IMG/VR virus record: IMGVR_UViG_3300018080_000197
Coordinates: 1-59,821 of that record
Reading direction: 5' to 3' (one strand)
DNA length: 59,821 bases
Source: a virus
Lineage: Duplodnaviria; Caudoviricetes
The position numbers and the translations under genes are program-made. A model generated the notes under the pieces. That model did no database searches, was not told where the DNA came from, and saw only the letters and a list, made by a program, of their open reading frames with translations. Below are positions 2,889-57,924 of the stretch, piece after piece (the first letter of the stretch is position 1; each line of letters begins with the position of its first letter).

Positions 2889-3469
2889 GTCTGGAGAATT
2901 GGTATCGCTGCACGGCGTGTCCCCTGTCCCGCTTCCGGAGGCGTGTGGTTCTGGGGAAGGGGACTATACCTGCGCAGATACTAATTGTGGGGGAAGCGCC
3001 GGGGAAGTCCGAGGACCTCCGCGGTGAACCGTTTGTTGGTCCGGCGGGAAGGATACTCCACAGCGCCATAGAGGATGCTACGGAACTAAGTGAACACACG
3101 TTGACCCCTACCATCTACATCACCAACACAGTGGCGTGTAGGCCAACGGATACTCCCAGAGGACCCAATAGGGAACCCACCAAGAAAGAGATTCTGACGT
3201 GTATGCCCCGGTTCCAAGCTACTGTGCGGATGGTAGCTCCACAGGAAGTGATTCTGCTGGGCAAGGTGGCAGAGGTGGCATACAAACGGCTGTATCCGGA
3301 TGCCGTGTGCCTCCGACACCCGGCATACATCTTGCGGAAGGGAGGAACGGAATCCACGGAATACAGAGGACTGGTAAGGGGCCTGGTGGACGTTTTCAAC
3401 AAGATTCCCGTGGAGCACCACAGCCACGGACGCACTATTCACAGGCGGAGGAAGAATGAGCAATCGTAG
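2885..3469 (+). CDS. uracil-DNA glycosylase, family 4-like (Fe-S)
   Basis: CTACPL, GEAPG, PFVGPAG, TNTVACRP, NREP and HPAY motifs. Confidence 0.9.
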   Translation: MSLENWYRCTACPLSRFRRRVVLGKGTIPAQILIVGEAPGKSEDLRGEPFVGPAGRILHSAIEDATELSEHTLTPTIYITNTVACRPTDTPRGPNREPTKKEILTCMPRFQATVRMVAPQEVILLGKVAEVAYKRLYPDAVCLRHPAYILRKGGTESTEYRGLVRGLVDVFNKIPVEHHSHGRTIHRRRKNEQS

Positions 3470-4445
3470 GATTTCAAAGTTTCGCAAGTGGTCCACAGGA
3501 TACCGTCTGGAGGATGGTGTTACGCAGTCCATGTTGTCCGCCTTTCTGGCCTGCCGGAGGCGGATGCTATATGAACTGGCGGGTTGGGAGTCCGTGAAGC
3601 AGAAATCCAGCCTGCGGCTAGGGTCTATGGCTCATGATGTTCTTCACCAGTATCATCTTGGGATCATAGGTGGGAAGGTGCGTCAACCCCAGCAGGCCGA
3701 CCGGATCATCCGGGGGACTGTGGACAAATGCCTGCGGAAGAACCTGAAGGAATCCAGCGCCGTCAACCCGGCGGAGGAAATGGAACTGGAAGCCGTCAAG
3801 GCGCGCGCCGTCCTGGAAGAATACGTCAGGTGGTGGACGGGAGACCTGGAGAGAGACTGGGAGGAAGTAGAAGCCACGTTCGACGTGCAGTTTCACGGCT
3901 TCCGTCTCAGGGGACGTATGGACGGACTCTATCGTAGGTCCAAGCGGCGGTTCGTTCTATACGAGACCAAGACCTTCTCCAGGATGAATGAGGACGAACT
4001 AACGGACAAGCTGTCATTCGACTTCCAGTGTCTGTTCTACTTGACCGCATTGCTCCATCGCGCAGACGGAATGGTCTCCCATGCCAGAGAAGCCCAGGAT
4101 GTGCTTTACAACATGATCCGGGTCCCCCAGCTAGTCCAGGGAGACAAAGAAACCTCCGGACAGTTTGTGGGGAGAATACGCGAGGACGTGCGGACACGTC
4201 CGGAACACTACTTCAAGCGCTTCGATTTGAACTTTCCCCCAGAGATACGGGAAGAGTTCGAGGATGAATTGCTTCTGAAGCTGCGAGAGTTTGAAACTTG
4301 GCTGGGAGGACACCTAGCCACTTACAAAACGGAAGGGTCCTGCTTCACACGGTGGTCCTGTCCGTTCGTTCATGCGTGCGCCTCCGGGAGACTTCGGCCG
4401 CACTACGCCCAGACGCGCATTCTGTTCAGAGAACTTCTGGATTAG
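3456..4445 (+). CDS. PD-(D/E)XK (Cas4/RecB-like) exonuclease
   Basis: ACRRR, GSMAH, RGRMDG...YETKT, QCLFY, C-terminal Cys cluster C..WSCPF...C. Confidence 0.85.
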   Translation: MSNRRISKFRKWSTGYRLEDGVTQSMLSAFLACRRRMLYELAGWESVKQKSSLRLGSMAHDVLHQYHLGIIGGKVRQPQQADRIIRGTVDKCLRKNLKESSAVNPAEEMELEAVKARAVLEEYVRWWTGDLERDWEEVEATFDVQFHGFRLRGRMDGLYRRSKRRFVLYETKTFSRMNEDELTDKLSFDFQCLFYLTALLHRADGMVSHAREAQDVLYNMIRVPQLVQGDKETSGQFVGRIREDVRTRPEHYFKRFDLNFPPEIREEFEDELLLKLREFETWLGGHLATYKTEGSCFTRWSCPFVHACASGRLRPHYAQTRILFRELLD

Positions 4446-4456
4446 GAGCACCAGTT

Positions 4457-5440
4457 ATGGCCCTAAAGCACAAACGAGTATCCCTTGTGCGCAAGGGAAG
4501 TGGAAAGACCGTATCCGAGCAAGCCTTGGATATGTCCAAGTTCCCCGGACTGCCTACAGAGAAGAAAGGTCCTATCACGGAATTCCTTCTCTACACCACG
4601 CTACTGTATGGGAGAGAGGGTGTGGGGAAGACCAAGACATTCTCCACGTTCCCCAACGCCTTGTTCCTCTCCACGGAGCCGGGGACAAAGGGGCTGAAGG
4701 TGTTCGAGTATAACGCCGCTGGCGGAGGTTGTAAGTCGTGGGAATACATTCTGGCGGCGTGTGAGTTGTTGGAGAAGACAGAGGAATTCGACTACGTAGT
4801 CATGGATACCGTAGACAGGGCGTATGACATGGCTATGGACTACGTATGTGCCAAACTGGGGATAGACTACCCCGGACGCACTGTGGACGACCAAGAGGAC
4901 TTCGGCAAGAGCTGGAAGAAAATCCGTCAGGAGTTCCTACGGGCAATCAACCGGATAGTCCAGACCGGCAGAGGCGTAGGCTTCACCTCCCATGCGATAG
5001 AGGAAGACGTGAAACGTCCGGACGGGTCCAGCTACCACCAAATCCGGCCTACCATGTCCAAGCAGGCGCGGAAGGTGGTGGAACCTCTGGTGGACTTCGC
5101 CTTCTACTGCGATTATGTTCGTGGGGCGGACAACAAGGTCCACCGCGTCATGTTCACCAAGGCCACGGAAATGGTGTTCGCCAAGGAACGCGAACTTCCC
5201 GGACAGGCCGTTTCTCTCCCAGCAGTGCTCCCGGTCACGCCGGACGGCGGATACGAAATCCTGGAGGCGGCGTTCTCCGGGAAAAACGTGGGATTGGACC
5301 CTCGGACGCTAATGCCCCCCAGAAACGCCAGTCCGATAGTCCAGAAGTTCATGGCCCAACAACACAAACTTGCGCACAAGTCACCCTCTGCGGTCAAAAC
5401 GGGACACCGCGGTGTGACACTCACACGGAAGGGAGGATAG
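4457..5440 (+). CDS. Sak4-like (AAA_24) recombination ATPase
   Basis: Walker A YGREGVGKT, Walker B VVMDT, TSH; lies between exonuclease and SSB-like gene; GGAG before ATG 4457. Confidence 0.8.
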   Translation: MALKHKRVSLVRKGSGKTVSEQALDMSKFPGLPTEKKGPITEFLLYTTLLYGREGVGKTKTFSTFPNALFLSTEPGTKGLKVFEYNAAGGGCKSWEYILAACELLEKTEEFDYVVMDTVDRAYDMAMDYVCAKLGIDYPGRTVDDQEDFGKSWKKIRQEFLRAINRIVQTGRGVGFTSHAIEEDVKRPDGSSYHQIRPTMSKQARKVVEPLVDFAFYCDYVRGADNKVHRVMFTKATEMVFAKERELPGQAVSLPAVLPVTPDGGYEILEAAFSGKNVGLDPRTLMPPRNASPIVQKFMAQQHKLAHKSPSAVKTGHRGVTLTRKGG

Positions 5441-5507
5441 CCAACTCACCAGTTCGCTAGGTTGACGTTAGTTCACTTTGTTCAAACAGGAGAAAGGAAT
5501 TCAAGCA

Positions 5508-6710
5508 ATGGCAAAGACGCAAGGCAAGTCCAGGACCTCTGTGTTCCAGCAGAGAATGGGCAAAATGCAGGCCAACTATGAAGCCTCCAAGGAAAACAGG
5601 TTCGGAGGCAAGTTCCCGGACGGAACGTTCCGGTTCCAGCTTCAGGAACTCGAGGGACGGGAGTCCAGGTCCTCTAAGGGGGACGATGGTCTTCCGAGAC
5701 TGTTCGTCTACGGCGAACTCTACTGCATGGAAGGCGAGAACGTAGGCAAAATCTTCCGGCAGAACTTCATGGTGGATACGGACGGCGGACTGTCCATGCT
5801 GTGCCAGTTCCTGGAGGACCTCGGCGGAGAACTCCCCGAGGAAGCCAAGGACCTGGAAGAGGCTATAGCCGAGGTCGCCGATCGTGCGCCCATCATTCAG
5901 GGAACTGTTTCCACGTCGGACCGTGGTTTCCAGAATCTGCGGGTAGACCGTCTGCTCCAGGAGAGCGCGGAGAAGGCGGAGGGGGAGTCCGGCGGAGACG
6001 ACGACGGTGACAGCGCCACAGAGGGACAGGGAGAGGAATCCGACGCGGAGGAAGCGATTACCCGCGAATGGGTAGCCGACGCCACCAGAGACCAGTTGGC
6101 GGAAGTCATTGACGCCTACGGTCTGAGCGTCGAAGTCCCCCAGCGTGTGACCACCAAGAAACGCGAGGAAGTCCTTGCGGCGCTGGTGGAGGAAGGCGTC
6201 ATAGAGGAAGAGGAAGAGGAAGAACCTGCCGATGGTGGTTCGGACGGTGACGCCTCCCAGAACGACGCCCCTCCCGCCCTGTCGGCGGACGACTGCCTGA
6301 AGATGGAACCGGAGGCGCTGGCCGAAGCGGTCAAGGACTTCGGTCTGGACGTCAAGGTCCCCAAGAAACTCACCAAGAAGCGCAGGGACCAAATCATCAT
6401 AGCCTTGGACGAAGCTGGCGCTTTCGACGCGCCTGCGGAGAAGGCTCCCGTCCAGGCCAAATCCGGGAAGGCGGCGGCGGGAAAACCGGCCGCACCGGCC
6501 AAACGGACTCTGACTCGCAAGAAGAAAGAGTCCGAGGGTCCGTCTGTGGACGAGCTGCGGGAACTGGCGGCGACTCTGGGAGTCACCGTGGAGGACGACG
6601 CGGACAGGGACGCCGTGGTTACGGCTATCAACCTGTATGAGTATCAGCGTTCCGAACTCACGGATGACGAAGTCGCCATGCTGGAATCCATTGGCGCGGA
6701 CCTCAAATGA
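5508..6710 (+). CDS. ssDNA-binding-like protein with long acidic region and helical repeats
   Basis: N-terminal beta-rich domain (FPDGTFRFQL...GKIFRQNF...FQNLRV) typical of SSBs after Sak4 genes; strong RBS AGGAGAAAGGA. Confidence 0.6.
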   Translation: MAKTQGKSRTSVFQQRMGKMQANYEASKENRFGGKFPDGTFRFQLQELEGRESRSSKGDDGLPRLFVYGELYCMEGENVGKIFRQNFMVDTDGGLSMLCQFLEDLGGELPEEAKDLEEAIAEVADRAPIIQGTVSTSDRGFQNLRVDRLLQESAEKAEGESGGDDDGDSATEGQGEESDAEEAITREWVADATRDQLAEVIDAYGLSVEVPQRVTTKKREEVLAALVEEGVIEEEEEEEPADGGSDGDASQNDAPPALSADDCLKMEPEALAEAVKDFGLDVKVPKKLTKKRRDQIIIALDEAGAFDAPAEKAPVQAKSGKAAAGKPAAPAKRTLTRKKKESEGPSVDELRELAATLGVTVEDDADRDAVVTAINLYEYQRSELTDDEVAMLESIGADLK

Positions 6711-6768: not shown

Positions 6769-8562
6769 ATGCGGAATGACCTGCCTACAGTAGCGTATGA
6801 CGTTGAAACGACCGGACTCCACATACACAGTGGAGCACGGATGTTCGCCTATGTGGTTACAGACGAAACGGGTAGTTCAGAGGTGAAGCGGTTGGACGGT
6901 TCCCCGGTCAGACGCCTGACCTCCAGGAAACACCTGGACAGCGTGTGGGATGACTCCCAAAAGGGGAGGCAGGCCAAGACTATGCACAACGCCAAGTTCG
7001 ACCTTCAGGCCACGGAAGTATATCTTGGAAAGCGTCTGGAAGGGCACGATATACACTGCACACATAAGATGGCCCATATCCTACAAAACCATCACCATGA
7101 CCTGAGTCTGGATAATCTGGCGTGGGAACTGGCGGAGTATCCCAGACAGGACGCGGCCATGAAGCGGTTGGCCAAAGTCTACGGCGGAGGGAAGTTGCGC
7201 TATGACAAGGTTCCGGAACGAGACATGACCCAGTATCAGATAGCGGACGGGGAACGCGGGATGCTGCTGTTTTTGTTCTTCTGGCCCAAGATACTAGCCA
7301 ACCCCAAGTGGTTGGAGTGTTACAACGTAGAACGAGAACTGATATGGACAACCATGCGGATGGAAGAACGTGGTCTTATGATCCGCCCTAAAGAGACTGG
7401 GAAACTAGTTGTGGAACTGGAGGACAAGGTAGATGCTTTGCAGGAGAGATTGTTTGACATGGTGGGTTGGCGTTTCAACCCCCTGAGTGACGACCAGTTG
7501 CGTAGGGTCCTCTTCAAGAAGCTGCGGCTTCCCGTGGGGAAGATGACCAAGAAGTCCAATAAGCCCTCTACGGACAAGAACGTATTACATGACCTGAAGG
7601 AAACCACCAACCATCCCGTGATAGACTTGATCCTCCAGATACGCGCATACACCAGAGGGGCGGGGACAGTGGGAAAGTATCTGGATTTGGCGGATGACGG
7701 CTGGATCATTCATCCCACTATCAATACCTGTAGGGCAATCACTGGACGGGAATCTTCGGAACACCCCAACCTCCAGAACGTGGAGAAGGAAGGCGTTCTC
7801 CTGAATCCCTACCCTGTAGCGGCTAGACGCTGCTTCCGCCCCAGAGTGGGATATGTGAACATACACGTGGACTACTCCGGGATAGAAATGCGTCTGTTGA
7901 TCTTCTATTCCAGGGACAAGAAAATGATAGCTTGTCTGAACACGGGGGACGGCGACGTTCACGCCTTGGCCGCTGCTGTGTTCTTCCAGGGTAGATTCAC
8001 AGAGGCGGAGAAGGACGCACGGAAGGTCTTACGCGGCGCTACCAAGAATGCCAACTTTGCCATTCCGTATGGAGCACAACCGGCCAAGGTAGCCGCAACG
8101 CTGGGGATGACTCTCCGGGAGGGAACCGCCGCATTCAGGCGCTACGGCAGAGAGTTCCCGGACATAGTGGCTTTGAACCGCCGCATTTCCCAGCAAGTGG
8201 AGGCGGAAGGCTTTGTGACCACCATCTTTGGGAGAAGGCTTCACGTTCCCCGTAACAAAGCCTATATGGGCACCAATTACCTCATTCAAGGCACAGGAGC
8301 ACAGATTCTCAAACGGGCACAAAACCGCGTCCACCGTTACAACGAGGAATACACGGGAGGGGAAGTGCGGTTGTTGCTGCCCATACATGATGAAATAGTC
8401 ATAGAGTATCCACGGAGCAGGTTGAAGGACCTTCCTGGGTATCTCAAAGACATACGGGACCTGATGGTGGACTTCCCCGAATTCGATATCCCGCTTGACG
8501 TGGAGGCTGGTATGTCCACGTTATGTTGGGCAGAGAAACGGGAGTTGACCATTCCAGACTGA
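6769..8562 (+). CDS. polA: family A DNA polymerase with 3'-5' exonuclease
   Basis: ExoI DVETTG, ExoII HNAKFD, motif A DYSGIEMR, motif B RGATKNANFAIPYG, motif C IHDE; start codon uncertain. Confidence 0.95.
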   Translation: MRNDLPTVAYDVETTGLHIHSGARMFAYVVTDETGSSEVKRLDGSPVRRLTSRKHLDSVWDDSQKGRQAKTMHNAKFDLQATEVYLGKRLEGHDIHCTHKMAHILQNHHHDLSLDNLAWELAEYPRQDAAMKRLAKVYGGGKLRYDKVPERDMTQYQIADGERGMLLFLFFWPKILANPKWLECYNVERELIWTTMRMEERGLMIRPKETGKLVVELEDKVDALQERLFDMVGWRFNPLSDDQLRRVLFKKLRLPVGKMTKKSNKPSTDKNVLHDLKETTNHPVIDLILQIRAYTRGAGTVGKYLDLADDGWIIHPTINTCRAITGRESSEHPNLQNVEKEGVLLNPYPVAARRCFRPRVGYVNIHVDYSGIEMRLLIFYSRDKKMIACLNTGDGDVHALAAAVFFQGRFTEAEKDARKVLRGATKNANFAIPYGAQPAKVAATLGMTLREGTAAFRRYGREFPDIVALNRRISQQVEAEGFVTTIFGRRLHVPRNKAYMGTNYLIQGTGAQILKRAQNRVHRYNEEYTGGEVRLLLPIHDEIVIEYPRSRLKDLPGYLKDIRDLMVDFPEFDIPLDVEAGMSTLCWAEKRELTIPD

Positions 8563-8814: not shown

Positions 8815-10887
8815 ATGGCAAAAGCTAGGACCAGCACGCCACTAGACGGTTTTGCGGATCACTTCATAGGACTGGTTCCATCCTCCAGCGGACAGGCTGT
8901 AGGAGACTGTCCCTTCTGTGGGAAGGAAGACAGATTCTATGTCAACATGGAAACCGGAGCATGGGATTGCAAGGTCTGTTCCCGGTCCGGGAGTTTCTTG
9001 ACTTTCTTGGAGGAAATGGGCAAACTCAATTCAGAAAGATTCCGTGGTTCTCCGGCCTTGCGTCTGGCCAAAGACAGGGGGTTGAAGGTAGCCACCTTCC
9101 GCGCATGGCGTGTGGGTTGGGATGGGCGTCAGTTTACGGTTCCAGTGGATATCTGCGGCAAGACGTATGACCTCAGACGTTTTAGATTGGGAGGGAAGAC
9201 GCGAGCAACCACGCGGGGACGGGTGTCCTTGGCCGGGATCATGGACCCGGACTCGGATACAGTCTGGTTGTTGGAGGGGGAATGGGATGGTATGGCGCTG
9301 TGGGAATCCCTGGAGCGCTCCGGCGCGTCCGGGTCCGTTGCGGCCGTTTGCGGAGGCGGCGCTTTCCCCCAGCATGGTCTATCCCTCTTCGAGGGAAAGA
9401 ATGTCATTGTGGCATTTGACAATGATTCGGCAGGACAAAAGGGCGCACAGCGTGTCTATAGGATGTTGCATGGTCTGGCCAAGTCCCTCGCATTCGTCCA
9501 TTGGACAGAAGACACCCCGGACAAGTTCGACGTGCGAGACCTCTACTTGCGCAGCGGCGCGGACACTCCGGCTATTCTCCGGGGTCTGTTGAAGGATTCG
9601 CCTCCAGGGCTCCCGGCGGGTTCCACTGAAACGGCGGAGGAACTGACAGGTCCAGGTCTTGATTCGGAGGAAGTCACGGCTAGATTCCGCAAGTGGTTGT
9701 ATCTACCCAATACCGAAGCGTTGACCGTGATGTTCGGCGTTTTGTTGGCCAACCGCTTGCCGGGTGATCCCGTGTGGCTGTATATGGTAGCTCCATCCGG
9801 GGGTTCCAAGTCGGAACTTCTTATGACCTTGCAGGATGCCCCCTTAGTCTGGTTTCTATCCAAGCTGTCCCCCAAGGCGTTGATTTCCGGGATGGTCAAC
9901 AGTGGACAGCCGGACCCGTCATTGCTCCCACGCCTGGACGGAAAGGTCTTGGTAATCAAGGACTTCACGGTCATCCTCAAAATGCGGGATCAAGACAAGG
10001 ACGAAATCTACGGGACACTCAGAGACGCATATGATGGTAGGGTAGACCAAGGCTGGGGAACGGGCGTCTTCCGGACGTATCAGGCCACCTTCGGCGTTCT
10101 CTCCGGCGTGACCAAAGAGATAGAGAAGGAAAGGGCAGGTAGCACTTTGGGGGAACGCTTCCTGAAATATTACCTGCCTATGGACGGATTGGGGAACCTG
10201 CGTAGTCACACGTCGCTTGTGCGGAAAGCGTTGGACAACATAGCCGAAGAACCTGAAATGCGTCTGGAGCTTCGCCAGACGGCGCGGGAGGTCCTGAACC
10301 GCCCCGTGGACGTATCAAACCCCCCGACTATCCCGGAGGCTATCAAGGACAAGCTGGTCATGCTTGCCCAGTGGATAGCAGCTTTGCGAGGAGTCGTCGT
10401 GCGTGAGAGGTTCACACGTGACGTGGAGTATTCCCCTACCCCAGAAGTGGGGACACGTGTGGCCAAGCAGTTGGCCAAGCTGGGAATGGGGATAGCCTTG
10501 TTCAGGCGCGTGGAAGAGTTGGACGAATCCATTTATCAGGTAGTGGTCAAGGTCGCGCGGGACACTGTTCCGGACCGTGTGGAGTGTATAGTCCGTCACC
10601 TCTACATGCGCACCAAGACCGAGTGGGTAACGGCCGGGGACCTCTCCAAGTGGTCCAAGTTCCCTGACGGAACCGTGCGGCGCGTCCTGGAGGACCTGGA
10701 GCTTCTGAACATAGTAGTGGCGTCCAAGACCTCCAGATTCGGGGGAGGGAAGTCCTACAGACTCAGTAGGACCATGTTGCGGCTTATGCGTCCTCTGGAC
10801 CTATACCAGCGCGAGGAAAGCTTCCTGAAGACGCGGCGCAACATCACCAAGCGGCCTAAAACCGGAGGACGGCATAGTGTGTCCTGA
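8815..10887 (+). CDS. primase-helicase (Zn finger + TOPRIM + AAA+-like domain + probable wHTH)
   Basis: CPFC...CKVC, LEGEWD and FDNDSAG TOPRIM motifs, P-loop-like APSGGSKS, LVIKD, ERFL. Confidence 0.85.
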   Translation: MAKARTSTPLDGFADHFIGLVPSSSGQAVGDCPFCGKEDRFYVNMETGAWDCKVCSRSGSFLTFLEEMGKLNSERFRGSPALRLAKDRGLKVATFRAWRVGWDGRQFTVPVDICGKTYDLRRFRLGGKTRATTRGRVSLAGIMDPDSDTVWLLEGEWDGMALWESLERSGASGSVAAVCGGGAFPQHGLSLFEGKNVIVAFDNDSAGQKGAQRVYRMLHGLAKSLAFVHWTEDTPDKFDVRDLYLRSGADTPAILRGLLKDSPPGLPAGSTETAEELTGPGLDSEEVTARFRKWLYLPNTEALTVMFGVLLANRLPGDPVWLYMVAPSGGSKSELLMTLQDAPLVWFLSKLSPKALISGMVNSGQPDPSLLPRLDGKVLVIKDFTVILKMRDQDKDEIYGTLRDAYDGRVDQGWGTGVFRTYQATFGVLSGVTKEIEKERAGSTLGERFLKYYLPMDGLGNLRSHTSLVRKALDNIAEEPEMRLELRQTAREVLNRPVDVSNPPTIPEAIKDKLVMLAQWIAALRGVVVRERFTRDVEYSPTPEVGTRVAKQLAKLGMGIALFRRVEELDESIYQVVVKVARDTVPDRVECIVRHLYMRTKTEWVTAGDLSKWSKFPDGTVRRVLEDLELLNIVVASKTSRFGGGKSYRLSRTMLRLMRPLDLYQREESFLKTRRNITKRPKTGGRHSVS

Positions 10888-11809
10888 ACGGAAGATCACC
10901 AAGCGGTTGAAGGCGTTGAAAGGTCCGGTCAAACGGGGCGTGGGAACGGCTGTCTTCTGGTATGGCGGGAAGGGAATCCTGTGTAGGCGCTTGCGTCCGT
11001 TGTTCCCTCCCCACAAACGCTATGTGGAACCATTCGGAGGTGGTGCGTCCGTCCTGTTGAGCAAGGAACCCGTGGAGGTGGAAGTCTACAATGACTTGGA
11101 CTCCGGTCTGGCCGACTTCTTCAGGGTCATGGCGGACCCGGAGGTCTTCCAACGGTTCTATCGTCACATAGAAGCACTTCCTTCCTCACGACAAATCTAC
11201 CTGGAATACGTGGATACGTGGAAGCGCGAGAGGGACCCGGCCGTTCGTGTGGCCAAGTGGTTCGTGGTTGCCCGGCAATCCTTCAACGGCAGATTCGGGA
11301 AAGGTTGGCGGTTCGATAGCCAACGAACCATCATGGGGTGTGGTCAGGCCGTGCGCGCGTGGCTTCAGGCCGTGGAGAAGCTTCCGGAGATTCATTTCCG
11401 ATTGCTTCACGTCCAAGTGGAGAACGACGACTTCAGGGAGATTCTGCCCCGCTATGACACGCCAGATACCCTCTTCTATTGTGATCCTCCCTACGTTCAT
11501 GCCACGCGCGGCGAAGTCAGGTATGACTTGGACATGCCGGACGATGACCATAGGGAACTGGTTGACATGCTATTGAAGTTGAAGGGAATGGTTGCCCTGT
11601 CCGGGTATGCCAATACCTTGTATACCGTTCTGGAAGACAACGGCTGGAACCGTAGGGATTTGGTGGTGACGTGTCCCTCCGCCAGCAGAGACTACGGGAC
11701 AGGCAACATCCCCAGAGGGGAGAGAACGGAATCCCTGTGGAGGAATCCGCAGGCAATGAAGGCGTGGAAGCTGGCCAAGGCCAGAAAACCACTTGTCATA
11801 GGGAGATAG
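10877..11809 (+). CDS. DNA adenine methyltransferase (Dam/D12 class)
   Basis: WYGGK, YVEPFGGGASV, VYNDLD and YCDPPY; target sequence unknown. Confidence 0.92.
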   Translation: MCPERKITKRLKALKGPVKRGVGTAVFWYGGKGILCRRLRPLFPPHKRYVEPFGGGASVLLSKEPVEVEVYNDLDSGLADFFRVMADPEVFQRFYRHIEALPSSRQIYLEYVDTWKRERDPAVRVAKWFVVARQSFNGRFGKGWRFDSQRTIMGCGQAVRAWLQAVEKLPEIHFRLLHVQVENDDFREILPRYDTPDTLFYCDPPYVHATRGEVRYDLDMPDDDHRELVDMLLKLKGMVALSGYANTLYTVLEDNGWNRRDLVVTCPSASRDYGTGNIPRGERTESLWRNPQAMKAWKLAKARKPLVIGR

Positions 11810-11811
11810 GA

Positions 11812-12522
11812 ATGGCTCGACGACGAATCACCAAGAAGCCGCGACCGGAAGCCGTTGTGGGGCGCGCGGTCACGTCCCCGGAACATGACTTCAGCGGGAA
11901 GGGAGGTCATTGGGGACGCAATGCCGCAGAACTGAAACGGTTGGTTGCGGAATACGAGAAGGTCCCTCTGGACAGTCTCCGGCCGTGGAAGGACAACCCC
12001 CGGATCAACACAGAGGCTATCCCCGTGGTGGCCGAGCTAATCAAGCAGCACGGCTTCGCCGGGGTAGTAGTAGCTACGCCGGACGGCGTGATACGCGCGG
12101 GACACACACGCTATGCCGCTCTGGTTTCCCTCCAGCAGGACCCGGACTTTGCTGGGGAGAAAGGGACGGTCTGGGTTCACTGGAAGAACTTCCCCACAGA
12201 GACGGCGGCGGAAGCTTATGCCCTTGCAGACAACAAGTCCGCAGAACGCGCCGACTGGGATCATGCCAAGCTGGCCAGATTGTTCAAGCAACGGAACACG
12301 GCGGACCTGGAGACCTTGCGCCAGTTCTCCGGGTTCAAGCAGCGGGAGATAGACTGGCACAGCGGACCCAGAATAGACCCGGAGAAGCTTCCTGACTTTG
12401 AAGTTCCAGCCAAGAGCTACACGGTCCGGATAGACAACGTTGACCCGGACGATTGGGAGACTGTTCTGGAACTGGTCAACAAGGCGTTGGAGGACACGGG
12501 ATATGCTGCCCAAGTTTACTAG
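11812..12522 (+). CDS. ParB/Srx N-terminal domain protein
   Basis: LRPWKDNPRIN, IKQHGF, IRAGHTRYAA and YALADNK; ParB type commonly linked to phage DNA-modification genes. Confidence 0.85.
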   Translation: MARRRITKKPRPEAVVGRAVTSPEHDFSGKGGHWGRNAAELKRLVAEYEKVPLDSLRPWKDNPRINTEAIPVVAELIKQHGFAGVVVATPDGVIRAGHTRYAALVSLQQDPDFAGEKGTVWVHWKNFPTETAAEAYALADNKSAERADWDHAKLARLFKQRNTADLETLRQFSGFKQREIDWHSGPRIDPEKLPDFEVPAKSYTVRIDNVDPDDWETVLELVNKALEDTGYAAQVY

Positions 12523-13549
12523 GCACGGTCACTCCGATTACGTCCACGTTTTGGTTGCCTACAACTACCTCCGGGGGAAGGACGGCATAGACCAGATACG
12601 CAGACTGACTAACAACCCCAACCTGTGCGTGTTGCTGGACAGCGGCGCTTTCATTGCCCACAGAACCCAAAAGGACATTGACCTCCAGGAGTATATGGAT
12701 TTCGTCCGGGAGGTGGGTCCGGAACTGTTCGGCTACTTTGCGCTGGACGTGATAGGCGACGTTGACGCCACGCTGCGTAACCTGGAGACCATGCGGGAGG
12801 CAGGGTTGACGCCGTGGCCTGTCTTCCAAATCAGCACAGACCGTGCGGATTTCAGGACCACAACGGAGGGCGCCTCCGTAGTGGGTATAGGTGGACTGAA
12901 TGAGCGGGTGTGGCCTTGGACCAGAAGCGCCAGATTGTCATACCTGAAGATGATGCGGGAATGGTCCCTGGACGCCGGAGTAGGTCTGCACTTGCTAGGA
13001 TATGCGGACCCGCCGGTTCTGGAGGCGTTCCAGCCGTTTTCGGCGGACTCCAGCACTTGGTTCAACGGACAGAGGTATGGGAGGGTGTTCCTCTACGCCG
13101 GACGTGGGAAATGGTTGCGGCTCTATAGGGACAATTGGCGCAAGAAGATGACTCCTGAAGCGGAATTGGAAATCACGCGGGCAGGCTACAGCGTGGCGGA
13201 CCTGGAGAATCCGGAACTGTGGACCAACACCCGCGAGAACTCGGAATCCGGAACCAACTTCTTGGCCAATCTCATGGCGCGTTCATGGGTCAAATTCTCA
13301 CTGGAGTTCTTTGCCCAGTTCACGATACGGGTGTTTCTGGTGGCGGATTCGGGAATACGTCACGGGAATCAATACCCCTTGATCCGGGAGGCTGGGAGGA
13401 TTCTTGGACGTTCTTCCCCAGCGACGGGGGAGACCTCACCGCGGCGGATAACCAAGACCCGGAAAGCCACAGACCGGGGAGTTCACGTCAAGAAGGGAAC
13501 GCCTGTGGAGTTCCCTGTAGTCAGACCACAACGGAGGTTTGGAGAATGA
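12503..13549 (+). CDS. dpdA: DpdA-like DNA guanine transglycosylase (TGT fold)
   Basis: LLDSGAF, ALDVIGD, GIGG, LHLLG and SADSSTW motifs; directly upstream of queC. Confidence 0.8.
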   Translation: MLPKFTRHGHSDYVHVLVAYNYLRGKDGIDQIRRLTNNPNLCVLLDSGAFIAHRTQKDIDLQEYMDFVREVGPELFGYFALDVIGDVDATLRNLETMREAGLTPWPVFQISTDRADFRTTTEGASVVGIGGLNERVWPWTRSARLSYLKMMREWSLDAGVGLHLLGYADPPVLEAFQPFSADSSTWFNGQRYGRVFLYAGRGKWLRLYRDNWRKKMTPEAELEITRAGYSVADLENPELWTNTRENSESGTNFLANLMARSWVKFSLEFFAQFTIRVFLVADSGIRHGNQYPLIREAGRILGRSSPATGETSPRRITKTRKATDRGVHVKKGTPVEFPVVRPQRRFGE

Positions 13550-20852: not shown

Positions 20853-21569
20853 ATGAAGTTCTCACGAGCCAATCTTCAGGTAGTGAGAGTGGTTACACGG
20901 AATAAGGCGGACACGGTTCTCCGGCAGGTCCGGATAGACGCGGACGGGACAACCGTTGCTTCTGACGGAAACGCGGTCATGGCCGTGGAACCCGTGAGCG
21001 AGGACACCATCCGTGAGGAATCCGCCCTTCCGGCCTTCGCGTCTGAAACGGACGTTCCGGAGGACGGGGTAGGACTGGTCCCGGAAGTGGTCACGGAAGC
21101 CATACGGAATCTCCCCAAGGGGAACCTGGCCTTGGAACTGGGGTTCGTGGTCCTGACGGACTGTTCGGAGAAGGAGCAGCAGGTAGCTTTGACTACCACG
21201 GACCTGAAGATGAATAAGACCGTGGAAGGCTACATGGCGCGCAAGCGCTTCCCGGAGTGGCGAAGCATCCTGAAGCGGATCAAGCGCCGTTCCACACGCA
21301 AGGTCTGCCTCCACAGGAAGTCGTTGATTCGGTTGTTGAATGCTGTTGACGCGGCTTGCCCGGCCGGGGAGCCATTGGTCTTCCTGGAGTTCTCGGACAC
21401 GCCGGAGACGGACGGCATTCTTCTACGCGCCGTGGCCGTGGAGACGGGGCAGAGAGTCATAGGCTATCTTATGCCTATGGATACGGGAGAGGACTGGTTG
21501 AAGCTGTCCCCGTGGGAGCAGTCCGTGTTTGCCCGCGCTATCAAGCGGTTGAAGGGAGGAAGGGTATGA
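20853..21569 (+). CDS. sliding-clamp (DnaN beta-like) fold protein, two-domain size
   Basis: LRQVRI...TVASDG...MA, RFPEWRSIL and YLMPM resemble beta-clamp domains II-III. Confidence 0.6.
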   Translation: MKFSRANLQVVRVVTRNKADTVLRQVRIDADGTTVASDGNAVMAVEPVSEDTIREESALPAFASETDVPEDGVGLVPEVVTEAIRNLPKGNLALELGFVVLTDCSEKEQQVALTTTDLKMNKTVEGYMARKRFPEWRSILKRIKRRSTRKVCLHRKSLIRLLNAVDAACPAGEPLVFLEFSDTPETDGILLRAVAVETGQRVIGYLMPMDTGEDWLKLSPWEQSVFARAIKRLKGGRV

Positions 21570-21829: not shown

Positions 21830-22015
21830 ATGCCATTGTGGTGGAGACGCTTGAAGGTGCGGATACGGCTGTGGTTCCTCCGGAGGAAGTTGCGGAGGTG
21901 TCAACGTGCATTCAACAAGTGGGCGGAGGCGCTGTCTGAGACCACACGCGCGGTCAAGTCCCTGCTGGACTACAGGGATGACCTGCGCGACGAGGGTTAC
22001 AGGGATGACGGATAG
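21830..22015 (+). CDS. hypothetical coiled-coil protein
   Basis: RBS GGAGGT/GAGG; 61 aa. Confidence 0.55.
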   Translation: MPLWWRRLKVRIRLWFLRRKLRRCQRAFNKWAEALSETTRAVKSLLDYRDDLRDEGYRDDG

Positions 22016-22400
22016 GCGGAGAATCACCAAGCGCAGAAAGGCGGAGTCCGAGGACTTGTCCGGTCCCGTCCCTGCGGCCAATAGGGACGCTGGCGCTGGT
22101 GGTGCGCGTGGGTATGACGTGCCATTGGTTCGCCCGGGTTGGACGGATTTTGGAGACCTGTTCAATGAGGACCCGGACCGTGCTATCAAGTGTCAGGGGA
22201 AACCCCATGACCTGGGCGTGCGCGTGTTTACGGGAAGGCGTGCCCCTTACAAGGGGATAGACCTGTGCTTCTACTATCATGGTCCCCTGGACGAAGCCAT
22301 ACGGTGGCTGGCGGAGAACAGGACGGCGTTCCAACGAGTGGGGAAGCGGTTAGAAGAGCTTGAATGTCAGGCGAAGAGACAGAAGGGAGGTCCACCATGA
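22005..22400 (+). CDS. hypothetical protein with N-terminal RRRITKR
   Basis: Overlaps both neighbours in operon fashion. Confidence 0.6.
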   Translation: MTDRRRITKRRKAESEDLSGPVPAANRDAGAGGARGYDVPLVRPGWTDFGDLFNEDPDRAIKCQGKPHDLGVRVFTGRRAPYKGIDLCFYYHGPLDEAIRWLAENRTAFQRVGKRLEELECQAKRQKGGPP

Positions 22401-27328: not shown

Positions 27329-28306
27329 ATGGCCAAGAAGTCTACAAACAAGGGAGACAACCCAAAGAAAAGAATCCCGGACGGCGGGGACGGGGGAAAG
27401 AGTGAACGTGTTATTACCAAGACGCGGATACGGCCCAATCCGGAGACACAGGAGAGACGGCGGAGAGAGGGAAAGCCTCCCCTTCCCAAGCAGGTCATGC
27501 GCAACCTGTCCTTCTGGGAGAAGGGACATTCAGGGAACCCGTCAGGCAGGCGTAAAGGCTACAAACCATTAGCGCCTATGCTGCGCAAGTTATTGAACAA
27601 AGTAGACAAGAAGACCGGCAAGAGTCTAGGGCAGGAGATAGTGGAGAAGTGCGCGGAGCGCGCGGCGTTCGGGGATGACAAGTTCGCTCGGCTGGTCTTC
27701 GACAGGGTAGACGGGAAAGCGCCGGACGCCACGGCTCAGAGGCTGTTTGAGGAAGCCTATGAAAGCTTCCTGGACGACTTCCTGGAGGCTGTCAAAGGGA
27801 CGGTCAAATCCCCTGCGGACCGCGCGCGTATTCTGGAGAGGCTGGGTCTGGAGGTCCCCGAGGTTCCTTCCCCAGCATCCCCGGAAGGGGAAAGGCAGGA
27901 GCCGGATGACGTGGAGACGGACCCGGAGAAGACCCGGCAGGATGCTATCCGGTTCTACACGTCTATCCGTGACAATCCCACTGAAGCGGCGGCGTTGCGG
28001 CTAAAGGCGCAAGAGAGATTGGACGTATTGTTGGGGCACCTCCCCGACCTGGAAACGGATGATCCGGAGGAACTGGGGAATTACCTAGTGCGGTTCGTCA
28101 AGCAGGCTCAGACGTTGGGAGGCGCACCGGCTTCCCCGGAAGGGGAGGGAGAAGTTGCGAGGGAGTCAGGCAGGCGGACGGGGACCGGGACTGACGGGAA
28201 CACCTCTCCACATACTAGCTCTAAAACTGGAGGGAACACGAGAGGTCCGGTCAAGTCCCGGTCTACCACTTCTGTGGCCAAAGGCAAGCGGGGGAAACGC
28301 GCATGA
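27329..28306 (+). CDS. terS: terminase small subunit (DUF5681-like), unusually long
   Basis: FWEKGHSGNPSGRRKG, DRVDGK; ATGA overlap with terL. Confidence 0.75.
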   Translation: MAKKSTNKGDNPKKRIPDGGDGGKSERVITKTRIRPNPETQERRRREGKPPLPKQVMRNLSFWEKGHSGNPSGRRKGYKPLAPMLRKLLNKVDKKTGKSLGQEIVEKCAERAAFGDDKFARLVFDRVDGKAPDATAQRLFEEAYESFLDDFLEAVKGTVKSPADRARILERLGLEVPEVPSPASPEGERQEPDDVETDPEKTRQDAIRFYTSIRDNPTEAAALRLKAQERLDVLLGHLPDLETDDPEELGNYLVRFVKQAQTLGGAPASPEGEGEVARESGRRTGTGTDGNTSPHTSSKTGGNTRGPVKSRSTTSVAKGKRGKRA

Positions 28307-33924: not shown

Positions 33925-34411
33925 GTCCAAAGTCCGTGAGATAGTCCAGGAGACAGCGCCTTGGCTGATATGGGCGTTGCAATTGCAGGACTGGAACATT
34001 CAGATAGCGTATGAGACGCTGGCCAGTGAGAACACAGCTACAGGGTTCCACGCGGACGCCAAGATAGACAAAGTGACTGGTTCCCAACGCGCGCTAATCA
34101 CTCTGGATCATGACGCGCTTCACACCAGACAGCAGGTCCTAGGCGCTTTGGGGCATGAACTTCTGCATATCTTCCACCAAGGGTTCGACCTCTACGGAAA
34201 CGCCGTAGACGCTGTAGCGCCGGACACCGCGGCTGTGATCCTGGAGAGGGTCTTCTATGACGCCAGAGAAGCTATGGTGCGTCGCGTGGAGAGAATGCTG
34301 TCCGGGGGTCTGTGTCTGGATTGGGAGGCTGTCATAGCGCAGGCCAAGGAACGCGCGGCCGGTTTTGTCCCCAAAGGCGAGGTGACTGAAGTTGGCGAAG
34401 AGGATAACTAG
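33917..34411 (+). CDS. HExxH metallopeptidase-like protein
   Basis: LGHELLH with downstream E. Confidence 0.6.
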   Translation: MDKSKVREIVQETAPWLIWALQLQDWNIQIAYETLASENTATGFHADAKIDKVTGSQRALITLDHDALHTRQQVLGALGHELLHIFHQGFDLYGNAVDAVAPDTAAVILERVFYDAREAMVRRVERMLSGGLCLDWEAVIAQAKERAAGFVPKGEVTEVGEEDN

Positions 34412-35537
34412 GGAGCAGGTCAAGCGGCTGGTCAGACCTGTCAACCAAAAGCTGGTGGACAAGGCTATCCTCCACGCCCACTTTATCAACCGCTACTCCA
34501 ACACAGAAACCAACAAGATATTGGTTTTCTTGAATAGGGAAGTATTCCCTGATTTGGTCTATCAGATACAACGACGTTTGGCTGTTATGAAGAAGAGGGG
34601 GTTTGACAAAGGACCGTGGACCACGGAACACCTCCGGGAATTGCTGGCCACTTCCGATGCTATCTTCCGGGAGGGATTGGGGGAGGCGGGAGCATCCCTC
34701 CGGCAGGACCTGAAGGCATGGTCCGTCTCGGAGGCTGAACATGAACGCGCCGTCTTGGCGGCGGAGACCAGTCCGTGGAACATAGAGTTCTCCACTCCCA
34801 ACGTCCAGACGTTGCATTCCATAGTCACTTCTGAACCGTTCCAGGGTAAGGTTCTGAACAAGTGGTGGTCCGGCGTGGAGGCGTCTGCCAAGGACGGTAT
34901 CCGCAGGCAGGTAACACAGGGAATAGCCGAGGGCCAGACCATCCCGCAGATAGTCCGGCGTCTGGTGGGAACCCAAGCTGCGGCGTTTGGAGACGGGGAG
35001 TTGGGGAAGATACGCCGGAACGCTGAAGCCGTAGCACGGACGGCTATCAACCATGTCTCCACTCAGGCGCGGGAGTCCATCTATGAAGCCAACTCTGACG
35101 TGATAGCAGGGGTTCAGTATGTGGCCACCTTGGACGCCAGAACCACGGAAATCTGTATGTCCCTGGACGGCAGGGTCTTCGGCATACGGGAGGGTCCAAG
35201 ACCTCCAATGCACTTCAATTGCAGGTCCACTACAGTTCCTGCCCTGAAGTCATGGAAACAGCTTGGGATAAACCTGCGAGAAGCGCCGTTGGGAACACGC
35301 GCCACGCTGGACGGACAGGTCTCTGAGAGAGTGACATACAGTCAGTGGCTCAAGTCGCAACCGCAAGCTGTCCAGGTAGCCGCACTGGGAAAGGCCAAGG
35401 CCGAACTGTTCAGCAAGGGGATGCCCATAGATAAGTTCGTCAACGACAAGGGCCAAACTGTTCCTGTGAAGGTCCTGGAGAAAATGAGAATACCTTCGTC
35501 TGTGAAGTCCATACGGACTGGCGGGAGGTCCAGGTGA
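34392..35537 (+). CDS. head morphogenesis / minor capsid protein (SPP1 gp7 / Mu F-like)
   Basis: ARTA, ATLDARTTEIC.SLDG, PPMHFNCRS. Confidence 0.9.
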   Translation: MAKRITREQVKRLVRPVNQKLVDKAILHAHFINRYSNTETNKILVFLNREVFPDLVYQIQRRLAVMKKRGFDKGPWTTEHLRELLATSDAIFREGLGEAGASLRQDLKAWSVSEAEHERAVLAAETSPWNIEFSTPNVQTLHSIVTSEPFQGKVLNKWWSGVEASAKDGIRRQVTQGIAEGQTIPQIVRRLVGTQAAAFGDGELGKIRRNAEAVARTAINHVSTQARESIYEANSDVIAGVQYVATLDARTTEICMSLDGRVFGIREGPRPPMHFNCRSTTVPALKSWKQLGINLREAPLGTRATLDGQVSERVTYSQWLKSQPQAVQVAALGKAKAELFSKGMPIDKFVNDKGQTVPVKVLEKMRIPSSVKSIRTGGRSR

Positions 35538-40559: not shown

Positions 40560-40574
40560 CGAAAGGACTAGCAA

Positions 40575-46503: not shown

Positions 46504-47455
46504 GTTCTCAGACGCTATCAGCTACGGGACTTCCGGAGGTCCGGGTTTCAGCACGTCTATCATCGTAACGGACTCCGGCGCGGAAGAGCGCATCCCGCAT
46601 TGGGAGTCTGCCCGTAGACGCTATGACGTGAAGTGGGCTATAAAGTCCAGGGACGAACTGCGGGAAGTAGCGGAGTTCTACATCCGCAGATTGGGTCCGG
46701 CCTACGGGTTCCGTTACAAGGACTGGTTGGACTATGCCTCTACGGCGGAGGGAAGGGTTTCTGACGACGAGGGGATAGCCGTCACGGCCTTTGACCAGCT
46801 TCTACGCACAGGGGACGGCAGTCTGACACAGTTCCAGCTAGTCAAACGCTACCAAGACCTGTTGGTGGACCGTGTGCGCACCATAACCAAACCAGTCCAG
46901 GGAACCGTCCGCGTGGGAATAGATGGTGTGGAGCAGACCTCCGGATGGTCCGTCAACACCACCACAGGGATAATCACGTTCACAACCGCACCCGGCGGGA
47001 ATCTGGACGTGACGGCTGGGTATGAATTCGACGTCCCGGTCAGATTCGGGAAGGAAGTGGACCTGTCTTTGGGAATGTCACACGAAGCGTTTGACATAGG
47101 ACAGATACCCAACATCCCCTTGGTGGAAATCCGCGACGAGGTAGCGCAGTCCGAGGAATTCTTCTTCGGCGGCGCGGCCTACATAACCCTGTCCGCCGAC
47201 AGAACCATTTCCCTGAATGACGGGAGAGTCCTGCACGTCACACCCTCCGCCAACGGATACGCATTGCTTCTCCCCAGCAACCCCACTTCCCTTCCGGGAG
47301 GGGGACCCTACTGGTATATCCACAACGCCAGTGATTCCTACACGTTTGAAATCCGGGATCACGAGGACACCCTGATTTCCTTGGTGGGGTTGGGGAAGAC
47401 CGTGGAGATAGTGCTTGCCCGTTACACCACTTTGTTCAAATGGTTGGCCATATGA
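46484..47455 (+). CDS. distal tail protein (GTA DUF2460-like) with C-terminal extension
   Basis: FHEVRF, GGPGFST, GFRYKDWLDY, FQLVKRY, GYEFDVPVRF. Confidence 0.88.
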   Translation: MGFHEVRFSDAISYGTSGGPGFSTSIIVTDSGAEERIPHWESARRRYDVKWAIKSRDELREVAEFYIRRLGPAYGFRYKDWLDYASTAEGRVSDDEGIAVTAFDQLLRTGDGSLTQFQLVKRYQDLLVDRVRTITKPVQGTVRVGIDGVEQTSGWSVNTTTGIITFTTAPGGNLDVTAGYEFDVPVRFGKEVDLSLGMSHEAFDIGQIPNIPLVEIRDEVAQSEEFFFGGAAYITLSADRTISLNDGRVLHVTPSANGYALLLPSNPTSLPGGGPYWYIHNASDSYTFEIRDHEDTLISLVGLGKTVEIVLARYTTLFKWLAI

Positions 47456-56453: not shown

Positions 56454-56709
56454 CCTCTACCTGGACTCCACGCTACACAGAGTCTCGGGACTCCCGGAAT
56501 ACCCGCAGGGACCGCTAAGGCGCTCACGCGGCGTCTCCTGAGCCGTGATTAGCTATTTGGAGAGGGGTTCCTGTGCGTCCAGGGGAGTCCCCGGACGGAC
56601 CTACTCGAAACTCGGTCTAGACCGATTCCGCATGTCTTTTTCTTTGAAAAGTAGCATGTTACAAGTCAAAGTCTTCCAACAGACTGTGACAATTCCACTG
56701 GAATTCGCT

Positions 56710-56747
56710 AAAAATCCTCTTGACTTCCACTATAGTATAGGTAGACT
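56710..56747 (+). promoter_or_regulatory. putative sigma70-type promoter
   Basis: AAAAAT, then TTGACT (56720-56725), 16 bp, TAGACT (56742-56747). Confidence 0.55.
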
Positions 56748-56801
56748 CTCAGTATGGGAATTGCCCATTTACCATGTTCTTGTTCAACGGAGGTCAACGG
56801 A

Positions 56802-57622
56802 ATGAGACGCGGAAACCAATTGGAGGTCCTGGAAGTAATTCGGACGCGCGACGGTCATTGGATTTGCCCTATCTGTGGTGAACCGTACGACCACTATGGG
56901 CTGGCCCGGGAATGTCTGGAAGAGTGTAGGGGAGCCCACAGCCATGTCTAGGCGATGCCGATACACGTTTCGCAGCACAGACGGCCGCACATTCAAGGTA
57001 GTGATTACCCCTGTGAGCTACAAGGGCAATCCATCTGGATTCAGGTTCACGCTAGCGGGAAGGACGTTTTTCCGCCTCAGACTGACAGCGGAGGAAGTGT
57101 TGTCCGACGCCAAAAACGTCTTGAACAAAATGTTGTTGCCAGAAGGGGCAGAAGTGATTGTGGAGGACACCAATGGCTAGCCATGAATACGATGTGCGCA
57201 GGCTGGCAGGGACCAAGACACCTATCTGGGCACTGTCCAAGCTGAAGCAGAAACCCTTCCCGCACTGGCTCACCATGCGGTTCTTCAAGGAAGATGAACG
57301 CGGAGCTAATGAGTGTCTGTTCCGGCTATGCAGGCGCACAGTGGGATTGGCTACCATCCGTGCCACGTGCAAGGTCTACGGCGCTACGTTGGACGAATCC
57401 TGCCTGGACTCCCAGTTGAAGGTAGACCTGCCTCCAGGAAGTGTCTGGAATATCAACGGGCTCCACACGCGGACCCGACCATTCGCCAGACCCGGCAGGC
57501 GACAACTTGACATAAGGGACCTGCTGGAGGACATGGAACACGGCGTCTCTTCCTGCCCCAATCCGGACTGCGCTGTCTGTAACACTGTGGAGGAACCCAC
57601 TTGCCAGAAGAACGACAGATAA
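56802..57622 (+). CDS. three small early ORFs (56802-56951 CxxC; 56944-57180; 57173-57622 with C-terminal Cys cluster)
   Basis: Overlapping start/stop packing; GGAG-type RBSs. Confidence 0.6.
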
Positions 57623-57924
57623 CCAAGACCCCCAGACGGGCCATAACCAAAACCCGCAGACGGGATGCTGGGAGTGAACGCAGGATAACCAAGACCCCCA
57701 GACGGATGATAACCAAGACGGCGCGCCTCTCCCTCCCCGACACCTTCAGGGTCCGGAACATGGGGAGAGGTTTGCAAAGACCATTCGCCCTCCAGCAATG
57801 CGTCAACAGGCCGTTCCCCGTCTGGGTCTGCAAGGCGTTTTTCGAGACAGAGGCTATGGCCGTGCGCGCATACCCCCTGTCAGGGGACTTCACCCTGGAG
57901 CTGGAAGCGGAGGACATACAATGA
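57601..57924 (+). CDS. protein with four R-x-I-T-K-T repeats
   Basis: TTG start with GGAGG RBS; stop overlaps next ATG; 22-bp direct repeat at 57618 and 57684. Confidence 0.7.
   Translation: MPEERQITKTPRRAITKTRRRDAGSERRITKTPRRMITKTARLSLPDTFRVRNMGRGLQRPFALQQCVNRPFPVWVCKAFFETEAMAVRAYPLSGDFTLELEAEDIQ

Follow-up and report, generated by a model that had tools for sequence, protein, structure and literature searches.

A selected basic peptide tag at the ends of DNA-handling proteins encoded by a tailed phage

Clients of PCNA carry the PIP box or APIM, and in phage T4 the C-terminal tails of gp43, gp33 and gp55 are clamp-binding motifs. The AT-hook has the core R-G-R-P in a basic context and is present in three copies in HMGA, and histone H1 carries S/T-P-K-K motifs. 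For the beta-clamp, the clamp-binding motif is QL[SD]LF, in more general form Q-phi-x-[LM]-[FL] or else Q-phi-x-[L/M]-x-[F/L], as quoted in PMC11139829. Molecular sleds are represented by adenovirus pVIc (GVQSLKRRRCF); such basic peptides, which resemble nuclear localization signals, are described as sliding on DNA and carrying cargo (PMC4740752, PMC4797294). The second of these sources states that, in vitro, a peptide containing about four basic residues binds DNA and slides along it, and that the sliding is robust to sequence (PMC4797294). The subject of this study is a further short basic peptide, R-x-I-T-K-[RKT], which recurs near the ends of unrelated proteins encoded by a tailed phage (Caudoviricetes; IMG/VR record IMGVR_UViG_3300018080_000197). 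The window analysed was the whole virus record of 59,821 bases (57% G+C), in which 85 genes were called, all on the + strand and covering 94% of the sequence, with a proteome of 18,815 aa. The peptide is a real, selected and positionally conserved tag on DNA-handling proteins.

Every copy listed in the initial annotation of the window, which had pointed to a motif shared by unrelated proteins, was present at its coordinates and in its frame, as were the variants RRISK and KRITR and the looser TLTRK at the C-terminus of the Sak4-like protein. The pattern [RK].ITK[RKT] was matched 10 times in the 85 proteins, always in gene frame and never on the minus strand, with six of the matches outside open reading frame (ORF) 57601. 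When residues were shuffled within each protein, or within 8- or 12-residue blocks that preserve the local basic composition, 0.08 matches were expected outside ORF 57601 and 0/500 shuffles reached six; the block shuffles ruled out composition alone as the source of the tag. When every 4- and 5-residue pattern in the terminal 35 residues was scanned without prior choice, R.ITK came out on top, in seven proteins, compared with a mean of 3.8 and a maximum of five proteins for the best pattern in 100 shuffles. Over six frames, R.ITK was counted 13 times in the three + frames (11 of them in gene frame and one, at 40556, intergenic) and not at all in the three minus frames; the copy at 49537 is in frame only if an upstream ATG is taken as the start of that gene. 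As a background, 647 kb of unrelated viral loci contained [RK].ITK 19 times when all six frames were counted. RTITKP (46883), RSITKE (49537), AGITKN (53152) and the intergenic word at 40556 look like chance occurrences. The two comparisons suggested at the outset, with shuffled proteomes and with shifted frames, thus both came out in favour of the tag.

Selection on the peptide and not on the DNA, as had been proposed, is supported because the copies keep the codon phase, vary synonymously, vary at x and have dissimilar flanks. The Ile codon was ATA in five of the 10 copies, ATC in four and ATT in one (genome usage 41/37/22%), and the Arg codon was CGN with all four third bases used. R, I, T and K were invariant, while the x position was occupied by seven different residues (in order N, K, R, R, R, V, Q, A, R and M) whose codon could differ wholly between copies. 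No nucleotide similarity was seen between the flanks of the copies beyond the 9−15 nt of the motif itself. The word AT[ACT]ACCAA[GA] was found at 12 sites on the + strand, 10 of them in frame 0 of a gene, one in frame 2 and one intergenic, and the stricter DNA word occurred twice on the minus strand. Where the primase and methylase genes meet, the copies at 10843 and 10895 are separated by just 52 nt, yet each follows the frame of its own gene, and these absolute frames differ. The Thr codon was ACC in 10/10 copies, compared with a genome usage of about 34−37%; since Thr before Lys is ACC in 38/42 cases elsewhere in the genome, this is ordinary codon-pair bias and not a nucleotide constraint.

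The tag lies within 35 residues of an end in all seven carriers (Table 1), and the matched domains exclude it. The Pfam/PHROG envelopes begin at residue 28 in the methylase, at about 40−47 in the ParB-like protein and at 63 in TerS, and the DpdA domain match stops near residue 252 of 369, short of the tag. This agrees with the earlier view that the copies lie outside the catalytic folds. The gene names given initially were upheld by the family searches (Pfam, PHROG), and with them the assignment of the carriers to replication, modification and packaging. All five core carriers with a family match act on DNA, namely the primase-helicase, the D12 methylase, the ParB-like protein, DpdA and TerS. 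Within the 7-deazaguanine cluster, the tag is present only on DpdA, the DNA-acting enzyme, and is missing from QueC, QueD, QueE and FolE; the structural and lysis genes (28.3−56.4 kb) contain zero core copies. Each copy is surrounded by 4−7 Arg/Lys in about 11 residues, and Pro follows the basic residues in 4/10 copies. Looser forms were also seen at the ends of Sak4 (GVTLTRKGG at its C-terminus), on a 73-residue protein (RRRIAR) and on a clamp-fold protein (RAIKR). Translation of the N-terminal copies is supported by good ribosome-binding sites 5' of the starts (GGAGGA 7 nt 5' of the GTG at 10877, GGGAGA 5' of the ATG at 11812) and by the conservation of the ParB N-arm in an orthologue.

The four tags of ORF 57601 have their Ile codons at 57619, 57643, 57685 and 57709 and arose by tandem duplication of a 24-nt unit; two T-P-R-R units are present besides. 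This ORF has GGAGGA 6 nt 5' of its TTG start, a coding score of +29.9 and a stop that overlaps the start of the next gene as ATGA. It retrieved no homologue but itself in 5.8 billion proteins, none in the fetched loci and no usable Atlas match. ORF 22005 had no Pfam or PHROG match and no usable Atlas match, and its Atlas model has a predicted local distance difference test (pLDDT) score of 0.38.

Table 1. Tag copies, their carriers and associated features in the window
Feature	Position	Strand	Location or basis
PD-(D/E)XK exonuclease	3456-4445	+	family match
variant RRISK (MSNRRISK)	3465..3479	+	exonuclease residues 4-8
Toprim primase-helicase	8815-10887	+	Toprim and primase family matches
RRNITKR	10834..10854	+	primase-helicase C-terminus, 9 residues from end
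D12-class N6-adenine DNA methylase	10877-11809	+	Pfam D12 match; GTG start
ERKITKR	10886..10906	+	D12 methylase residues 4-10
ParB-like protein	11812-12522	+	family match
RRRITKK	11818..11838	+	ParB-like protein residues 3-9
DpdA-type transglycosylase	12503-13549, or from 12440	+	family match
RRITKTR	13442..13462	+	DpdA C-terminal tail, 35 residues from end
7-deazaguanine DNA modification set	12503-16626 and 18623-19648	+	adjoins methylase and ParB-like gene
g20853, two-domain DnaN-type clamp-fold protein	20853..21569	+	predicted structure; ends ...FARAIKRLKGGRV
ORF 22005, 131 aa, no Pfam or PHROG match	22005-22400	+	
RRRITKR	22014..22034	+	ORF 22005 residues 4-10
small terminase TerS (DUF5681)	27329-28306	+	Pfam
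ERVITKTR	27404..27427	+	TerS residues 26-33
Mu F-like head morphogenesis protein	34392-35537	+	family match
variant KRITR (MAKRITR)	34398..34412	+	Mu F-like head protein residues 3-7
ORF 57601, 107 aa, orphan	57601..57924	+	RQITKT, RAITKT, RRITKT, RMITKT within 57613-57720

Relatives of the phage were compared through the four best records by primase: L083 (a 7.3-kb fragment, 53% identity), G001 (an 81.6-kb complete genome, 51%), G002 (44.4 kb, the same contig as L088, 47%) and L085/L086 (41%). No close relative was present in the collections searched; an INPHARED megablast of 27000-47000 was empty, and an IMG/VR search with the ParB-like protein gave two distant matches. A contig derived from a TerL search (one match, 41% GC) had just two genes in common with the window and was of no use. 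The four primase C-tails align in columns as RRNITKR (window), KASVKRK (G001), AREIRKE (G002) and RRKVRKA (L083), so that the Ile/Val column is kept in 4/4, followed by T/K/R and then K/R, in proteins only 47−53% identical. The ParB N-arms also align (MARRRITKKP in the window, MAKRTVKRRP in G001), the C-terminus of the G002 homologue of DpdA (30% identity) reads ...KKIRRMKK, and a weak, probable orthologue of ORF 22005 in G001 starts MPTKRKIKRRP (E 0.001, with the C-terminal part alone aligning). The class pattern [RK][RK][IV].[RK] was then counted in terminal 20-residue segments and compared with shuffles of the same segments. It was found 15 times in G002 (4.36 expected, 0/2000 shuffles), seven times in G001 (2.92 expected, 58/2000), twice in L083 (0.24 expected, 19/1000) and once in L087 (0.18 expected, 164/1000); L084 had none (0.45 expected) and was not enriched.

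As judged from these alignments and counts, a looser basic-x-[IV]-x-basic motif is present at the same termini in the relatives, and R-x-I-T-K-[RKT] appears to have been sharpened in this lineage from an older tail motif, [RK]-x-[IV]-[TKR]-[KR], after which P is common. The tag can accordingly no longer be called specific to this phage. Conservation in relatives, which had been named as a check, held for the class pattern at the same termini and failed for exact I-T-K, for which no excess was found in L083−L093. Each genome seems to have its own dialect: I-T-K in the window, [IV]-K-R-R-P in G001 and K-K-[VI]-R-K in G002. Among terminal [RK].[IV].[KR] matches, the window has I in 17 and V in five, with Thr next in 11/22, whereas G002 has V in 28 and I in 11, with R or K next in 22/39 and Thr in two; those of G001 were mixed. 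In aligned pairs, the window has I-T-K where G001 has [IV]-K-R (primase tail, ParB arm and, probably, ORF 22005).

Unrelated methylases carry the tag in G001, where an N6/N4 DNA methylase has it at the N-terminus (MMVKRRRIIKRRP) and a C-5 DNA methylase at the C-terminus (...RKKIKRRKV). The slot 3' of the primase gene holds a different protein in the window, L083 and G001, two of the three with a methylase family match, and each is tagged N-terminally. A 381-residue protein of G002 (40739-41884; locus L106:739-1884, minus strand) had no Pfam match and is encoded near the ParB-like and DpdA genes. Both of its ends consist of about a dozen K-K-[IVLT]-x-K-K units (including KKITKK, KKVVKK and KKIVKK), with an (AKAV)n run in the middle, and it is a possible counterpart of the multi-copy carriers of the window.

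The reading that we tentatively favour, while holding it to be plausible rather than probable, is that the tag serves as a small portable arm with affinity for nucleic acid or some other polyanion. Its basic residues would lend it non-specific binding, as in AT-hooks and DNA-sliding basic peptides, and the arm would keep the primase-helicase, the methylase, the ParB-like protein, DpdA and TerS on phage DNA. DNA as the ligand is a presumption, as is a raised local concentration of the enzymes on it, and ORF 57601, with four copies, would be a small multivalent DNA-binding protein. Such a tether fits because every identifiable core carrier handles DNA, because unrelated methylases acquire the tag and because the multi-copy carriers (ORF 57601 and the 381-residue protein of G002) are Lys-rich; an (AKT)n Lys-rich protein is also encoded in the window.

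Several points weigh against tethering to DNA. Sliding that is robust to sequence leaves four invariant positions unexplained if DNA tethering is all that is required. A concerted change of dialect is not predicted by a universal ligand such as DNA, and would need tail-to-tail copying or differences in DNA modification. The NT5C-like nucleotidase g16917, which is not a DNA enzyme, has a basic tail as well (...RLTRRRKGR). Exact-residue scans for a common terminal pattern gave nothing significant in L083, L085−L088, G001 and G002; the best patterns in G001 and G002 were each in four proteins, with null maxima of seven and six. The class pattern was not enriched in L085 (one observed, 0.61 expected, 468/1000 shuffles) or L086 (two observed, 1.45 expected, 434/1000). 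Because this pattern was picked after L083 and L088 had been viewed, G001 is the only independent test of it, and a modest one. The difference in dialect is based on three genomes.

The alternative that survives best, possible although on balance doubtful, is that the tag is a docking motif, a short linear motif bound by a single co-evolving reader that gathers the primase, the modification enzymes and TerS at one site. The reader could come from the host or be encoded by the phage, candidates of the latter kind being proteins such as g20853 and the acidic g5508, and ORF 57601 would be a multivalent adaptor or competitor. Four invariant positions with a free x are typical of motifs read by a pocket, and the tags sit on the free ends of many DNA enzymes, as clamp-binding motifs do in the account of PMC11139829. 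Docking fits the invariant positions and the dialects better than the tether does, because a sled tolerates changes of sequence and DNA is not a co-evolving partner; the three aligned pairs with I-T-K against [IV]-K-R (one of them aligned in the C-terminal part alone) and the shift in the residue after the aliphatic position (T in 11/22 and 2/39) both point this way. The phage moreover encodes a clamp-fold protein of its own. On the other side, TerS and a head protein would be unusual replisome clients, and no candidate reader stood out. The tag fits neither the PIP box nor APIM. It also departs from the beta-clamp consensus Q-phi-x-[LM]-[FL] in the form given in PMC11139829. Docking and tethering are not exclusive, in that the charge could bind DNA while a partner reads Ile-Thr.

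The clamp-fold protein, g20853, was examined as a candidate reader. It had no Pfam or PHROG match and is one of a large family without a name, for which 1320 representatives were counted at E <= 0.001 and which has a basic C-terminal tail after a conserved W-E motif. A first model from nine sequences was poor (pLDDT 58.8) and was replaced by an AlphaFold2 model from a 125-sequence alignment, with a pLDDT of 94.0 and a predicted template modelling score of 0.86. Foldseek against the PDB gave 138 matches at E <= 0.001; the matches listed were DnaN sliding clamps or clamp complexes, together with an entry titled 'DNA replication regulation protein', and the top rows had a query template modelling (TM) score of 0.49−0.57 over about 220−230 columns. 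From the model and these matches, g20853 is a predicted two-domain clamp-fold protein, in agreement with its initial description as clamp-like. The family itself ends in tag-like tails, however, with [RK][RK][IV].[RK] in 29/125 tails compared with 11.6 expected (0/1000 shuffles reached 29) and basic tails almost throughout, and for this reason g20853 looks more like another carrier than the reader. A co-fold of g20853 (alignment A2) with residues 1−50 of ORF 57601 scored 0.00 without controls and counts neither way. The phage also encodes a family A polymerase, and no clamp-loader family was found among the 40/85 proteins scanned with Pfam; g20853 may be a processivity factor or have another role.

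The acidic protein g5508 (5508-6710, net charge -39) contains an internal KRTLTRKKK. By eye it has three repeats that look helix-extended-helix (SAP/Rho-N-like) between Glu/Asp runs, and since the peptide lies within such a repeat it is probably part of the fold and not a tag. L083, G001 and G002 share the conserved N-terminal domain of g5508, but their versions of the protein finish with poly-Lys. Another acidic protein, g38052 (38052-38474, net charge -24), has a similar-looking motif at its end. Among the G002 proteins with the class motif are the acidic protein, the clamp-fold protein, the exonuclease, Sak4 and UDG, and none of these five resembles a sole reader; that so many candidates are tagged in relatives argues against any one of them and leaves DNA as a simple candidate hub. 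The single hub that had been envisaged initially was not identified.

A more ambitious version of docking, which we consider speculative and unlikely as a whole, would make the tag an addressing code with lineage dialects. One co-evolving reader, either a phage protein or the 7-deazaguanine-modified phage DNA, would recruit replication, modification and packaging enzymes, including new methylases, and ORF 57601 would act as a four-fold adaptor or regulator.

It is improbable that the tag is a by-product, with basic tails selected for charge alone and I-T-K recurring because short stretches are duplicated locally and because the opening codons of a gene stay in place when its body is exchanged at a module boundary. 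The 24-nt duplication in ORF 57601 is of this kind, and the post-primase slot, where three different proteins in three phages are each tagged N-terminally, fits retention of 5' codons. Against it stand flanks that have no nucleotide similarity outside the 9−15 nt of the motif, a variable x among four fixed positions, six copies where shuffles of the local composition gave 0.08, and an aliphatic position kept across orthologues that are just 47−53% identical.

A regulatory site, in which the Thr with Arg at -3 is phosphorylated, or the tag is a degron or cleavage site, and many DNA proteins are switched at once, has still less to recommend it and is judged quite unlikely. R-x-x-T is the general shape of basophilic kinase sites, the tags are on exposed ends, and Thr in place of a basic residue is specific to this lineage. 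Relatives keep the tag without the Thr, however, and therefore the conserved core function does not need it; nor was a kinase, protease or ADP-ribosyltransferase domain found by Pfam in the 40/85 window proteins scanned, so that the kinase or protease site entertained in the initial annotation found no partner there.

Least probable by far, and largely refuted, is a nucleotide-level element, with ATHACCAAG as a DNA site bound by a protein such as the ParB-like one, or as an RNA signal close to gene borders, and the peptide a side effect: four copies do lie within 2.6 kb around the parB-like gene, four are in tandem, the Ile codon is 15 or 18 nt after the start codon in four genes and the Thr codon is uniformly ACC (34% genome usage), but the last is codon-pair bias, the independent sites are all in the codon phase of their own gene across three absolute frames, the Ile and Arg wobble positions and the whole x codon vary, just two copies of the word are on the minus strand, and orthologous tails preserve the peptide pattern with other codons.

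The remaining content of the window was as follows. GC skew is positive throughout. Family matches were also obtained for a Sak4-like AAA_24 protein, a family A DNA polymerase, UDG and an SNF2 helicase. The 7-deazaguanine DNA modification set is complete, with DpdA, QueC (identified by its N-terminal sequence), QueD/PTPS, a radical-SAM QueE and GTP cyclohydrolase I, and includes two genes without assignment (15615-16091 and 16066-16626). The family A polymerases of the window, L083−L088 and G001 share a C-terminal W-x-x-K-[RK]-x-[LVIMF] ending (WAEKRELTIPD in the window, 8520-8562; WEHKRKLPIPK, WERKREVEVPK and WSAKKMFNILV in others), which, to go by its sequence, could be a partner-binding tail of the polymerases' own.

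Window positions 44-216 match 59649-59821 with 98.3% identity, so that the record overlaps at its ends (1-216 and 59649-59821), and the genome is therefore circular or terminally redundant. A 9-bp repeat, AGACGGCCA, is present in 12.4 copies at one record end and 7.7 at the other. A gene that wraps around the ends (59497..59821 + 1..650) encodes the (Ala-Lys-Thr)n Lys-rich protein, of histone-H1-like composition. The 8-mer CCCCAGCA was found at 25 sites (17 on the + strand and eight on the minus strand), compared with 3.3 expected, and 0/100 shuffles reached 25; examples are 119, 3687, 9367, 28324 and 59724 (+) and 12157, 18974 and 55708 (minus). A pyrimidine run (TTCCCCCAGCA) is often found 5' of it. 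Since the sites fall on both strands and in every codon phase, the word belongs to the DNA level. Read on the opposite strand it is TGCTGGGG, which is similar to the E. coli Chi site, and the 8-mer may be a host Chi-like or other recognition word.

If a 5−6-residue peptide does suffice to place enzymes on phage DNA or on the replisome, this would explain how unrelated methylases and other DNA-modifying enzymes can be swapped in and work at once. It would also provide a simple annotation rule for 'DNA-acting' orphan proteins in uncultured phages, and a compact engineering handle. With strong statistics and conserved positions, the present case is a good one in which to look for the reader of such a tag, and shared terminal tags point to a possible general, little-described layer of organisation in phage proteomes.

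Compared with known systems, the tag is closest in layout to the clamp-binding motifs, where one short motif is likewise placed on the disordered termini of unrelated DNA enzymes (in their case including polymerase partners, methylases and nucleases) and outside the catalytic folds. It differs from them, as far as its residues indicate, in being basic, with one aliphatic residue, no Gln and no hydrophobic pair, and the clamp-fold protein of the window itself ends in a related tail. Identity with the beta-clamp motif was rejected, as all 10 core copies lack Gln at position 1 and none has a hydrophobic pair at its C-terminal side. The consensus of APIM is [KR]-[FYW]-[LIVA]-[LIVA]-[KR], and it was rejected also, with no aromatic residue at position 2 and Thr at position 4 in 10/10 copies.

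Two signals of other kinds were set aside. A Tat signal peptide has an RR motif followed by a hydrophobic h-region, whereas the residues after the N-terminal tags are basic or polar (KKPRPEAVVGRAVTSPEHD, RRKAESEDLSG) and two copies are C-terminal. The start-associated sequences of cluster K mycobacteriophages are a conserved DNA word just upstream of start codons, whereas the word found here is inside coding frames and keeps to the codon phase throughout, either 15−84 nt past a start or close to the end of a gene.

In chemistry and portability, the tag resembles the molecular sleds and the AT-hook. Like a sled, it is short, basic and placed at the end of a protein, with the roughly four basic residues present by composition (4−7 Arg/Lys in about 11). 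A sled is a peptide used by a virus to give any cargo non-specific DNA affinity and so unite enzymes and substrates on viral DNA, and the same would be proposed for the tag. The four invariant positions and lineage dialects distinguish it from sleds, the activity of which is robust to sequence. The AT-hook would be comparable as a small portable motif with a strict core, single on enzymes and multiple on small proteins, and the two T-P-R-R units of ORF 57601 recall the S/T-P-K-K motifs of histone H1; the Ile-Thr core of the tag has no counterpart in the AT-hook, and no copy contains G-R-P, which excluded identity. A published description of a shared basic terminal tag on phage DNA enzymes was not found in a full-text literature search that largely left out subscription journals. 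The initial annotation had gone too far in knowing of no described system like this one: the tag is not a categorically new system, and it has close analogues among clamp-binding tails, AT-hooks and DNA-sliding basic peptides.

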